Source: Escherichia phage vB_EcoM-BECP11
DNA length: 64,000 bases
Sequence record: MW286157.1
Strand: one strand, 5' to 3'
Shown: positions 30,490 to 32,770 of the stretch, piece by piece
Layout of the letters: each line of letters begins with the position of its first letter
How positions within the stretch are numbered: the first letter of the stretch is position 1
The notes under the pieces: generated by a model
Told to the model about the DNA's origin: nothing
Databases searched by the model: none
Seen by the model: the letters and a program-made list of their open reading frames with translations, nothing else
Program-made: the position numbers and the translations under genes

Positions 30490-30562
30490 TGGGAATTAGC
30501 CAAGTTGGTAAGGCACTGGATTTTGATTCCAGGATGCAAAGGTTCAAGTCCTTTATTCCCAG
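30490..30562 (+). tRNA. tRNA-Gln (UUG)
   Basis: Hand-folded cloverleaf: acceptor TGGGAAT/ATTCCCA, anticodon loop TTTTGAT, T-loop TTCAAGT; no encoded CCA. Confidence 0.85.
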
Positions 30563-30563
30563 C

Positions 30564-30650
30564 GCGAGAATGGTCAAATTGGTAAAGGCACAGCACTTAA
30601 AATGCTGCGGAATGATTTCCTTGTGGGTTCGAGTCCCACTTCTCGCACCA
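30564..30650 (+). tRNA. tRNA-Leu (UAA)
   Basis: Acceptor GCGAGAA/TTCTCGC, anticodon loop CTTAAAA, long variable arm, encoded CCA. Confidence 0.85.
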
Positions 30651-30655
30651 AATTT

Positions 30656-30729
<74 letters not shown>

Positions 30730-30739
30730 ATTTAATTTA

Positions 30740-30813
30740 CTCCGTGTAGCTCAGTTTGGTAGAGCGCCTGATTTGGGATCAGGAGGTCCAAGGTTCAAAT
30801 CCTTGTATGGAGA
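30740..30813 (+). tRNA. tRNA-Pro (UGG)
   Basis: Anticodon arm CCTGA-TTTGGGA-TCAGG, T-arm CAAGG-TTCAAAT-CCTTG, acceptor with two G-U pairs. Confidence 0.8.
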
Positions 30814-30815
30814 CT

Positions 30816-30905
30816 GGAGGCGTGGCAGAGTGGTTTAATGCACCGGTCTTGAAAACCGGCAGTCGCTCCGGCGACTCATAGGTTCGAATCCTATCGCCTC
30901 CGCCA
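30816..30905 (+). tRNA. tRNA-Ser (UGA)
   Basis: Acceptor GGAGGCG/CGCCTCC, anticodon loop CTTGAAA, long variable arm, T-loop TTCGAAT, CCA. Confidence 0.85.
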
Positions 30906-30910
30906 GTTTT

Positions 30911-30986
30911 GCTGATTTAGCTCAGTAGGTAGAGCACCTCACTTGTAATGAGGATGTCGGCGGTTCGATTCCGTCAATCAGCACCA
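30911..30986 (+). tRNA. tRNA-Thr (UGU)
   Basis: Acceptor GCTGATT/AATCAGC, anticodon arm CCTCA-CTTGTAA-TGAGG, CCA. Confidence 0.85.
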
Positions 30987-30987
30987 A

Positions 30988-31062
30988 GGCCCTGTAGCTG
31001 GAAGGTTCAAGCAAGCGACTCATAATCGCCAGATGGTGGTTCAATTCCACCCAGGGCCACCA
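30988..31062 (+). tRNA. tRNA with CAU anticodon (Ile2 type as in T4, formally could be Met)
   Basis: Acceptor GGCCCTG/CAGGGCC, anticodon loop CTCATAA, T-arm GGTGG-TTCAATT-CCACC, CCA. Confidence 0.75.
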
Positions 31063-31074
31063 AATTATGAATTA

Positions 31075-31161
31075 GGGGAGTTATCCCGTAGAGGTAGCGG
31101 TGTGGACTGTAAATTCATTGTCATTGCGACTCGGGTGGTTCGACTCCATCACTCCCCACCA
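31075..31161 (+). tRNA. tRNA-Tyr (GUA), type II
   Basis: Perfect acceptor GGGGAGT/ACTCCCC, anticodon loop CTGTAAA with U33 and A37, long variable arm with 3 bp stem, CCA. Confidence 0.7.
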
Positions 31162-31165
31162 ATTT

Positions 31166-31240
31166 GGATGTGTAGCTCAATGGCAGAGCGATCGCCTGTT
31201 AAGCGATTGGTTATAGGTTCGAATCCTATCACGTCCGCCA
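31166..31240 (+). tRNA. tRNA-Asn (GUU)
   Basis: D-arm GCTC/GAGC, anticodon arm ATCGC-CTGTTAA-GCGAT, T-arm ATAGG-TTCGAAT-CCTAT, CCA. Confidence 0.8.
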
Positions 31241-31354
31241 AATTTGTGACAACTGTCACATTAATATCTACTTGACGCGATTATAGGGGTTGAACTGATC
31301 ACTCTTCTCTTAATTTCGTGTGAAGACATCATGATTGTTGGAGTAGGTATTAAT

Positions 31355-31430
31355 GTGGCCGTAGTTCAGTTGGTAGAACTCGAGATTGTGATTCTCGTAG
31401 TCATGGGTTCGACTCCCATCGGTCACCCCA
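31355..31430 (+). tRNA. tRNA-His (GUG) with extra 5' G(-1)
   Basis: 8 bp acceptor including G-1 opposite C73, anticodon arm CGAGA-TTGTGAT-TCTCG, T-loop TTCGACT, CCA. Confidence 0.8.
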
Positions 31431-31434
31431 ATTA

Positions 31435-31510
31435 CGGGGCATAGCTCAGAAGGAAGAGCAAGGACCTTCTAAGTCCTGGGTCGTAGGTTCGATCCCTACT
31501 GCCTCGACCA
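31435..31510 (+). tRNA. tRNA-Arg (UCU)
   Basis: D-arm GCTC/GAGC, anticodon arm AGGAC-CTTCTAA-GTCCT, T-loop TTCGATC, CCA. Confidence 0.85.
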
Positions 31511-31528: not shown

Positions 31529-31879
31529 ATGAAAGGTAATGTTTATTTAGTAGTTCATGATTTAACATTCTATTTTAATCATAATGATACTGTTATTTCT
31601 GAACGCGTAATTAATTTGCTTTATCAGCATGCAGATTATGTTTATGTCGAAAACGAATTTGGTCATTGGCAATTTCTCAAAAATCGTTCATTTGGTTTAG
31701 ATGGTTACGAATATTTTGAACGTAAAGACCTTTTAGATAAAATTCCGTTATCTACACAATATCAAAATCACAAGTCTTTATATAAATGCCGTCCAATTCG
31801 AAATGCTGAATCTGCGTATGAAGTAATTGATTTATGGCGTAAACGTCGTGAACAGGTTGATGCTTTAAAAGAATACTAA
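31529..31879 (+). CDS. hypothetical protein
   Basis: 116 aa ORF with SD GAGGAAAA right after tRNA-Arg. Confidence 0.6.
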   Translation: MKGNVYLVVHDLTFYFNHNDTVISERVINLLYQHADYVYVENEFGHWQFLKNRSFGLDGYEYFERKDLLDKIPLSTQYQNHKSLYKCRPIRNAESAYEVIDLWRKRREQVDALKEY

Positions 31880-32186
31880 GAAACCGGGTCGCTACCGGTA
31901 AGTCGTCGGACTGATGTTCCCTGGAGTATAGTTTCCTCCCACAGTTTTACTGTGTTCTGGCTCTTTACTATCACAGCAGAAACGGCGCACCGAATTATCG
32001 ATTCGAGGAAATATCTTTGCCGTAAACCGAGTAGCGTTTTTGACGGAACGTTCGGATATGGTCGAGATATGGCCTTTTAAAAATATTGAGTAGCGTCAAC
32101 TGCTTAATAACCGGGTTCGAATCCCGGCGTTTCGTACAAACACTTGCCTTAGCAGGTGGAACCCCGACAAGGTTGCCGCAAGGCTT
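31880..32186 (+). ncRNA. candidate structured non-coding RNA region (possibly related to the small stable RNAs of the T4 tRNA region)
   Basis: About 300 bp with no credible ORF on either strand, GC-richer than surroundings, contains a T-arm-like hairpin CCGGG-TTCGAAT-CCCGG and ends at a strong terminator. Confidence 0.3.
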
Positions 32187-32215
32187 AGCCCCGACCGAAA
32201 GGTTGGGGCTTTTTA
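32187..32215 (+). terminator. intrinsic terminator, 10 bp stem with GAAA tetraloop
   Basis: AGCCCCGACC-GAAA-GGTTGGGGCT followed by TTTTT. Confidence 0.75.
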
Positions 32216-32260
32216 GTATAAATAAGTATATTAAATCCACGAATTAAAACAGGAAATAAG

Positions 32261-32734
32261 ATGAAATCATATACTCAATTTTTAAATGAAGCGGTGTTAA
32301 ATGAAGCATCTAGCACCGAAATTCAAGCTGTCGCAAAAGCAGCCATTGCAGCGGGTAAATATTCTTACAAAGATGCTTCTGATGAATCGCGATTTCAGTT
32401 CGCACGCGACATGAAAGCGGAAGGATTTACGGGAAATGCAGTTAGTATGGCCTGGAAAAGTTTAGTTGCTACTGGCGCTGCTTTTGCAAAGGCTTCGGGT
32501 AAACCTGCTCCTAAAGCAGATCCTAAAGTCGCACAAGAAAAAAATATCGTTAAAGGAATTATCTCCAAATATGAAGCTATCCTTAAAGAGCTTTTAGTAA
32601 TCAAAACTGAAGGCCAAAAGCTAGCTCGTGCTCATAGCTTTAAAGATAACCCACATGCTCATGACCTAGAGTATGTTGAAGACATCCAAAAAATTATTAA
32701 AGACCGCATTTGGTCTGCTAAACAAATCAAATAA
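32261..32734 (+). CDS. internal-protein-like protein with capsid-targeting sequence
   Basis: 157 aa starting MKSYTQFLNE-AVLNE-A, i.e. the MK-Y-F ten-residue capsid-targeting sequence plus L-x-E gp21 cleavage motifs seen in ipI and the ip gene after e. Confidence 0.65.
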   Translation: MKSYTQFLNEAVLNEASSTEIQAVAKAAIAAGKYSYKDASDESRFQFARDMKAEGFTGNAVSMAWKSLVATGAAFAKASGKPAPKADPKVAQEKNIVKGIISKYEAILKELLVIKTEGQKLARAHSFKDNPHAHDLEYVEDIQKIIKDRIWSAKQIK

Positions 32735-32741
32735 CATTCTT

Positions 32742-32770
32742 AGCCCCGACCAAAAGGTTGGGGCTTTTTG
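32742..32770 (+). terminator. intrinsic terminator, near-duplicate of the one at 32187-32215
   Basis: AGCCCCGACC-AAAA-GGTTGGGGCT followed by TTTTT. Confidence 0.75.

Follow-up and report, generated by a model that had tools for sequence, protein, structure and literature searches.

Two small stable RNAs of bacteriophage T4, species 1 (rnaC) and species 2 (rnaD), have been known since the 1970s. Their function has stayed unsettled for about 50 years, both are poorly curated and without an Rfam family, and they are commonly miscalled as 'hypothetical protein', tRNA-Lys or tRNA-Met. The T4 reference record (NC_000866) lists both genes downstream of tRNA-Arg, where the tRNA operon ends: rnaD ('small, stable RNA; species 2 RNA'), the 119-nucleotide (nt) 'band D', and rnaC ('species 1 RNA'), the 139-nt 'band C'. 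Here we analyze the corresponding region of a 64,000-nt stretch of DNA from Escherichia phage vB_EcoM-BECP11 (MW286157.1) – hereafter 'the window', whose coordinates are used throughout.

The two T4 RNAs share a precursor with tRNAs: a primary transcript of ~1.75 kb starts from a promoter upstream of the tRNA cluster, ends after the species I gene and gives rise to eight tRNAs plus species I and II (PMC2330249). RNAC and RNAD have been classed as late RNAs in T4, with a Northern blot using an RNAC probe as validation (PMC9697503). The tRNA region of T2L is organized differently, without segB and with a tRNA-Asn gene, two open reading frames (ORFs) of unassigned function, and the species I and II genes (PMC2330249).

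Aligning the T4 stretch to the window placed orthologues of rnaD and rnaC at 31876-32136, in the same position at the end of a tRNA operon. Judged by this alignment, the region is the direct orthologue of T4 rnaD and rnaC. An earlier note, made from the letters of the window alone, had likened it to the T4 band C/D RNAs; the T4 annotation and the alignment sharpen that suggestion to direct orthology. What the note had missed is that the region comprises two separate RNAs and a processed 3' trailer. The order of rnaD, a 6-nt spacer, rnaC, trailer and terminator is common to the window and T4:

31876-31991, plus strand: rnaD orthologue (T4 species 2 RNA, about 116 nt); aligns to NC_000866 71053-71171, nhmmer E = 1e-27 against the family profile
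31992-31997, plus strand: AU-rich spacer GAAUUA between rnaD and rnaC, the 6-nt gap of the T4 annotation; presumed site of an RNase E-type endonuclease, the enzyme being our supposition
31998-32136, plus strand: rnaC orthologue (T4 species 1 RNA, 139 nt); 136/139 positions identical to T4 without gaps, 164 bits with our rnaC covariance model (R1), z = -3.97 against shuffles
32137-32186, plus strand: conserved 3' trailer of ~50 nt with hairpin CACUUGC-CUUA-GCAGGUG (32141-32158); conserved with T4 and removed from the mature RNA
32187-32215, plus strand: intrinsic terminator of the tRNA/rnaD/rnaC unit, found by terminator scan; AGCCCCGACC-GAAA-GGTTGGGGCT followed by a T-run

The phage of the window belongs to Tequatrovirus, and its tRNA region is of T2 type. 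Phage NBEco003 and Escherichia virus CAM-21 share a 761-base segment around the region with 100% identity, and this segment matches 742 phage records, almost all of them Tequatrovirus and relatives; the region itself is matched by 817 phage records, at least 80% of it being covered in 679. GenBank records of RB68, RB6, ATK48, RB33, Kha5h and GiZh carry rnaC/rnaD labels at the corresponding site. As already known features of T4, the two genes are expected in a T4-like window. New are a comparative structure model and a broader distribution, neither of which we found described in the searchable literature, from which the older T4 papers are largely absent. Overall, the region is very probably best explained as two non-coding stable RNAs at the 3' end of a phage tRNA operon.

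The structure model is based on an alignment of 22 distinct rnaC homologues, drawn from T4-like enterobacterial phages of more than 12 genera. From these sequences RNAalifold predicted 40 pairs, of which 27 have compensatory changes. In a structure of 44 pairs, a loop-loop helix among them, pairing holds in 97.5% of alignment cells, compared to 37-50% after sliding the 3' partners by 1-3 columns, and compensatory change is seen in 27 of the 44 pairs (119 cells changed on both sides). None of 500 shuffles equaled any of five rnaC pairing measures. Read from this covariation, rnaC is a tRNA-derived four-way junction whose single fold has been kept across homologues, with the following predicted elements:

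31999-32005, plus strand: 5' strand of the acceptor-like stem, CGAUUCG; seven positions pairing with 32128-32134 (CGUUUCG), two of them U·U
32006-32075, plus strand: long arm P2, with five helical segments and apical loop UUUGACGG; 15 of 19 pairs show compensatory change
32040-32045, plus strand: loop L2, UUGACG, proposed kissing partner of L3; the same in 19 of 22 homologues
32076-32083, plus strand: junction J2/3 (UUUAAAAA), A/U-rich, 8 nt; AA.AU is conserved, and the junction is unpaired in the consensus fold
32084-32109, plus strand: arm P3, 9-10 base pairs (bp) with the 6-nt loop CGUCAA; 8 of 9 pairs show compensatory change
32094-32099, plus strand: loop L3, CGUCAA, the perfect 6-nt complement of L2; likewise the same in 19 of 22 homologues
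32111-32127, plus strand: tRNA-like T-arm CCGGG-UUCGAAU-CCCGG; abuts the 3' acceptor strand with zero spacer, and its middle pair covaries as U-A/G-C/A-U
32128-32136, plus strand: 3' acceptor strand CGUUUCG and a 2-nt tail, UA; the tail is the mature 3' end in the T4 annotation

We observed several likenesses between rnaC and tRNA (RF00005). The 7-bp acceptor-type stem is stacked on a canonical T-arm, passing without a break into a 5-bp T stem whose loop reads UUCGAAU (UUCRANY-type); the gene lies among tRNA genes; and in two lineages, Marfa-type phages and PM2, the stem is followed by an encoded U-CCA. Unlike a tRNA, rnaC has no D-arm, 7-nt anticodon loop or cloverleaf, carries a long and a shorter arm where a tRNA has its D and anticodon arms, contains two U·U appositions in its acceptor stem, and mostly continues after the stem with U-ACA, as in the window and most other phages. 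The two U·U fall at stem positions 4 and 5 in 21 of the 22 sequences; in PM2 they are replaced by U-A and pair 1 is A-U. At pair 3 the T4 group has A-U where other genera have G-C. These changes in PM2 and in the T4 group confirm the acceptor stem. The T-arm-like hairpin is present at 32111-32127, as the earlier note had seen, and belongs to this acceptor/T-arm module, which we infer lets rnaC be handled and kept stable like a tRNA. Kc304 (UGCAUUC) and Entb_45 (UGCAUGC) have lost the T-loop consensus.

Database models of known RNAs recognized none of this. A covariance-model search with Rfam 15 yielded no family for rnaC or rnaD; at gathering thresholds there was no match of the tRNA clan (CL00001) in 31876-32215, where ARAGORN also made no call. 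Apart from tRNAs, matches at E <= 10 were noise such as isrK and tRNA-Sec, the latter giving the best tRNA-clan score of the region at 16.6 bits (threshold, 47). Transfer-messenger RNA was rejected as an identity, ARAGORN calling none and Rfam matching none in the region. Three further structural or regulatory candidates were set aside. A K-turn in the long arm, which might allow it to fold back, would break a covarying helix. The sequence TGCTTAA within rnaC might be taken for a MotA box, but T4 does not conserve it. Pairing of GAAACG at the rnaD 3' end with CGUUUC in rnaC was dropped as an acceptor stem, since covariation backs the stem inside rnaC (CGAUUCG/CGUUUCG). We nonetheless record that AGAAAC occurs at both ends of rnaD (31880-31885 and 31979-31984), that GAAACG in the 3' copy complements CGUUUC (32128-32133) perfectly, and that this complementarity is limited to the clade carrying both RNAs. 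It could reflect chance or an alternative pairing in the precursor.

A second feature of rnaC is the complementarity of its two arm loops. L2 and L3 are complementary at 6/6 positions in every sequence except PM2 (4/6; its L2 contains AGACG), and random loops of the same sizes reach a 6-nt complement in about 7e-4 of trials. Seven Marfavirus-type sequences (kv_tblp8, Marfa, and five IMG/VR or metagenome contigs) have UUGGCG as L2 and CGCCAA as L3; the A-to-G and U-to-C changes occur together and leave all six pairs intact. Matched loops gave energies of -6.9 and -7.6 kcal/mol and mismatched combinations -4.9 and -1.8 kcal/mol. We read this as a predicted 6-bp kissing interaction between L2 and L3, with intermolecular and intramolecular forms equally possible.

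Other viral RNAs provide partial parallels. The tRNA-like ends of plant viruses are virus-encoded tRNA-like RNAs. GOLLD and ROOL are large structured phage RNAs of roughly 600-800 nt that lie near tRNA genes and have been reported to self-assemble via loop contacts. Like them, rnaC is phage-borne, tRNA-adjacent and highly structured, and its self-complementary loops could join copies; unlike them, it is 139 nt long, and it shares no sequence or Rfam match with them. Multimerization of rnaC is pure conjecture.

Low-stringency blastn extended the range of rnaC-like sequences considerably. They occur in Winklervirus (Kc304), Moonvirus (Moon), Karamvirus (PG7, VPA32, RZH, Entb_43, myPSH1140 and Pet-CM3-4), Kanagawavirus (KLB31, PEi20, IME523, Entb_45 and Kosakonia 305), Gelderlandvirus (Melville), Kagamiyamavirus (EcS1), Mosugukvirus (PM2) and Marfavirus (Marfa and kv_tblp8), as well as in Citrobacter phage Ursula, Mosigvirus, Dhakavirus and Gaprivervirus. 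In Moon, PG7, VPA32, Entb_43, Melville, Pet-CM3-4 and EcS1, rnaC is immediately flanked by a tRNA gene on either side, typically tRNA-Trp before it and tRNA-Gly after it. These copies follow the CCA of the upstream tRNA after a short A-rich spacer of AAYWA type and end a few bases before the next tRNA. Several records label rnaC as tRNA-Lys(ttt) or tRNA-Met (G4507, G29, PG7 and SonariX).

Both RNAs are phage-specific in our searches, having been found only in phages. The rnaC covariance model identified nothing in bacterial-genome or unrelated metagenome loci picked by a loose pattern, and a pattern scan combined with the model found no rnaC in GTDB genomes. Likewise, a blastn search of PLSDB plasmids and of 5,426 complete genomes of E. 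coli, by which short antisense sites are undetectable, gave no match. Copies found in IMG/VR and metagenomes with a loop-free pattern were only of Karam type and Marfa type. The remaining matches to that pattern (4 from bacterial genomes and 8 of 10 from metagenomes) were attributed to chance, and three IMG/VR loci picked by a first, loop-based pattern (L009-L011) were rejected as rnaC by the covariance model.

The second RNA, rnaD, is conserved in a different manner. It matches T4 rnaD exactly over 40 nt at the 5' end and 22 nt at the 3' end, and the ~50 nt between these are unrelated: in place of the central arm of T4, the window has a hairpin of unrelated sequence. Its parts are as follows:

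31883-31899, plus strand: 5' hairpin ACCGG-GUCGCUA-CCGGU, predicted; an A-U pair becomes G-C in Mosigvirus
31900-31923, plus strand: conserved 5' core AAGUCGUCGGACUGAUGUUCCCUG; AAGUCGUC and GUUCCCUG do not vary and the intervening bases hardly do, all the way from T4-like phages to W70 of the Vequintavirinae
31924-31969, plus strand: variable arm with hairpin CACAG-UUUUA-CUGUG (31940-31954); unrelated to the T4 arm sequence
31970-31991, plus strand: conserved 3' core AUCACAGCAGAAACGGCGCACC; identical to T4 and W70

Across lineages, the invariant parts of rnaD are AAGUCGUC...GUUCCCUG and AUCACAGC...GGCGCA. In Tequatro-, Mosig-, Dhaka- and Gaprivervirus, a middle hairpin of lineage-specific sequence is framed by 47 nt at the 5' end and 25 nt at the 3' end that hardly vary. 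A 5' hairpin and a central arm are predicted in most lineages from unrelated sequences, with several predictions no better than shuffles. W70, Moon and PM2 have a hairpin of unrelated sequence at the same place just before AAGUCGUC, and the 5' hairpin of Marfa-like rnaD is weak and indistinguishable from shuffles. The predicted variable arm is closed by a conserved CUG/CAG in the window, as in most lineages. Candidate core helices are paired in 92-94% of cells and are nearly invariant, with 1-2 compensatory pairs. One register, GUCGU/ACGGC, is 95.6% paired with zero compensatory change; another, CGUCG (31904-31908)/CGGCG, is 100% paired with one compensatory change, in Moon.

A profile search of the collected loci recovered further rnaD copies in Moon, Marfa-type contigs and PM2, and blastn indicates copies in Karamvirus VPA32 and other Klebsiella phages. 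An additional homologue lies directly after tRNA-Met in Escherichia phage W70 (OP778610; L065 1493-1592), a member of the Vequintavirinae with no relationship to T4. This copy suggests that rnaD moves horizontally between phage families within tRNA clusters. Upstream of tRNA-Met and rnaD in W70, we noted a 79-nt element (L065 1320-1398) that exceeds the threshold of the Rfam tRNA model, at 35.8 bits, without an ARAGORN call; it may be an unusual tRNA or tRNA-like RNA.

Each of the two genes can also occur without the other beside it. CUA3 and DK-13 keep rnaD, the trailer hairpin and the terminator and have no rnaC, and in PG7, where rnaC lies between two tRNAs, no rnaD was found beside it. The loss of rnaC appears as a clean excision in CUA3 (L007 700-900); in DK-13 an ORF stands in its place (L008 699-817, 1300-1400). 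Consistent with these arrangements, rnaD and rnaC are independent modules.

We propose that transcription of the window's unit would start upstream of the tRNA cluster, traverse the 11 tRNA genes, a 116-amino acid ORF, rnaD and rnaC, and stop at 32187-32215. The terminator hairpin (32187-32210) has a 10-bp stem with 7 GC pairs and is followed by TTTTT. Both RNAs are probably released by host tRNA-processing enzymes, as the T4 literature and the gene layout would have it: an endonuclease would cut at the AU-rich spacers, RNase P would act on neighboring tRNAs, and a 3' exonuclease would trim rnaC back to two bases past the acceptor-like stem. The layout in T4 and W70, where rnaD directly follows a tRNA, fits tRNA-type maturation, and so does the placement of rnaC between two tRNAs in the seven phages named above.

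Physical properties of the region agree for the most part with its original description as GC-rich, structured and closed by a GAAA-tetraloop terminator. The terminator exists, just beyond the end at 32186 that the description gave. GC content is indeed raised, at 0.45 in 31850-32149 against 0.31 in the upstream ORF, but the next 600 bp downstream have 0.41 and sequence further out about 0.33-0.41, making the contrast modest. Structure holds for rnaC and for the trailer with terminator (32137-32215; z = -4.31), which fold better than shuffles, but not for the 5' third occupied by rnaD (z = -0.24).

These findings allow cautious statements about function. The tRNA-like handle would make rnaC a substrate or ligand of tRNA-binding proteins and lend it tRNA-like stability, with the kissing-loop domain as the putative effector. 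One tentative possibility is that rnaC titrates a host tRNA-binding factor, such as a defense nuclease directed against tRNAs, by mimicking tRNA or serving as a decoy. A more elaborate proposal appears unlikely as a whole: the kiss would either hold rnaC in a compact form the size of a tRNA or link copies as dimers or oligomers, rnaC would then titrate such a factor, and rnaD would be a second, independent host-factor ligand and a mobile module of phage tRNA operons. The only experimental hint of a host-specific role concerns rnaD: in the T4-like phage BW-1, all lines evolved on E. coli ECOR34 gained one shared single-nucleotide polymorphism, in rnaD (PMC12685909). This convergent mutation points to ECOR34 as a host in which a phenotype could be sought. 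The rnaC model, which combines a tRNA-like handle bearing two U·U with two covarying arms and invariant loops complementary to each other, permits precise and cheap mutational tests.

A number of points weigh against this interpretation. The decoy idea would be an argument from shape only, and published work states that the function is unknown (PMC3014915, PMC9697503, PMC12685909). The loss of the T-loop consensus in Kc304 and Entb_45 implies that T-loop identity itself is not essential. Support for the kiss comes from a single evolutionary event, because the Marfa-type sequences are all close relatives, and an intramolecular kiss between arms as unequal as about 25 bp (long) and 10 bp (short) would need a sharp bend. 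As for rnaD, it folds alone no better than shuffles, and its core is so invariant that covariation neither supports nor refutes the core helices. Since rnaD occurs without rnaC (CUA3 and DK-13) and rnaC without adjacent rnaD (for example PG7), neither appears to be universally required in this set of phages. Mature ends in the window are assigned from the T4 annotation, and because an ORF rather than a tRNA precedes rnaD here, its 5' end may form differently from that in T4.

Among other explanations, the one that survives best treats the region as a cis-acting processing or stability module of the tRNA operon, protecting the precursor 3' end and positioning endonuclease cuts, with the RNAs as long-lived debris. 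The region always lies within or at the end of tRNA operons, and trailer hairpins and terminator are retained where rnaC has been lost. T4 mutants with deletions in the tRNA region are viable on laboratory hosts, which also speaks for such a module. A mere spacer, however, would have no need of invariant loops, of a conserved U·U motif or of 27 pairs that covary in over 12 genera; rnaC sits in the middle of the array rather than at its 3' end in several genera; and the invariant single-stranded core of rnaD points to sequence-specific recognition. We regard a purely cis-acting role as unlikely.

The two RNAs might instead be regulators that base-pair with host or phage mRNAs through J2/3 (UUUAAAAA), CAGAAA of rnaD and the two rnaC loops. 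Conserved single-stranded motifs would suit this role, and one paper refers to 'small regulatory RNAs' in classing them among the late RNAs (PMC9697503). Three considerations make it quite improbable: there is no known target; the two most conserved loops complement each other and covary, so that an external target is not needed; and the blastn comparison with E. coli genomes returned no match, though it is blind to short antisense sites.

The earlier note had also offered a degenerate tRNA or a remnant of foreign DNA, either of which would leave the region functionless. An acceptor/T-arm module is present, automated annotators call part of the region tRNA-Lys or tRNA-Met, and there is the weak tRNA-Sec match. 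Both ideas are nonetheless very improbable. Covariation contradicts decay: 22 rnaC homologues share the fold with 27 covarying pairs, compensatory changes and purifying selection extend across many phage genera, and the T4 RNAs are detected as discrete, stable species (PMC9697503). The same selection and covariation speak against a foreign remnant, and our genome, plasmid and metagenome searches found similar DNA in phages only.

Coding potential was the remaining alternative, and the note's judgment that the region holds no credible ORF stands in substance. The minus-strand ORF it had dismissed, 31995-32240 (81 amino acids), exists and matched no PHROG family. A plus-strand ORF at 32086-32247 (53 amino acids) matches phrog_28391 at E = 6.5e-39; 'hypothetical protein' is annotated here in many records. 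No ribosome-binding site is evident for this ORF, which continues across the terminator hairpin. Its length in relatives ranges from 21 amino acids (KIT01) to 80; the start codon is lost in VR7, and the frame is shifted in HX01, TB004 and mogra. We judged it spurious on account of its variable length, lost start, frame-shifts and read-through of the terminator, and phrog_28391 appears to be a family of spurious ORF calls across rnaC and the terminator. That the region encodes a small protein on either strand is hardly credible, given this instability, the tRNA that directly follows rnaC in other genera, and substitutions that track RNA pairing rather than codon structure.

The surroundings of the two genes differ from T4 in several respects. 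ARAGORN called 11 tRNA genes at 30490-31510 (Gln, Leu, Gly, Pro, Ser, Thr, Met-CAT, Tyr, Asn, His and Arg); compared to T4, the window lacks segB and has three extra tRNAs, and its tRNA region looks like the T2L type. T4 rnaD begins 1 nt after tRNA-Arg with no gene between them, whereas in the window the two are separated by the 116-amino acid ORF (31529-31879, phrog_3355), whose TAA stop (31877-31879) overlaps the first bases of rnaD. A resembling ORF is also present in Mosigvirus mogra.

Downstream, a 157-amino acid ORF (32261-32734, phrog_2280) is flanked by two near-identical terminators, at 32187-32215 and 32742-32770. The sequence 3' of the second matches what trails the single terminator of T4, and 32216-32770 looks like a gene cassette inserted with duplication of the terminator. 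Within the tRNA cluster, tRNA-Tyr (31075-31161) was called by ARAGORN yet is not among the ten Rfam tRNA matches at the gathering threshold. A tRNA-free gap of 114 nt between tRNA-Asn and tRNA-His (31241-31354) starts with the hairpin GTGAC-AACT-GTCAC (31246-31259).

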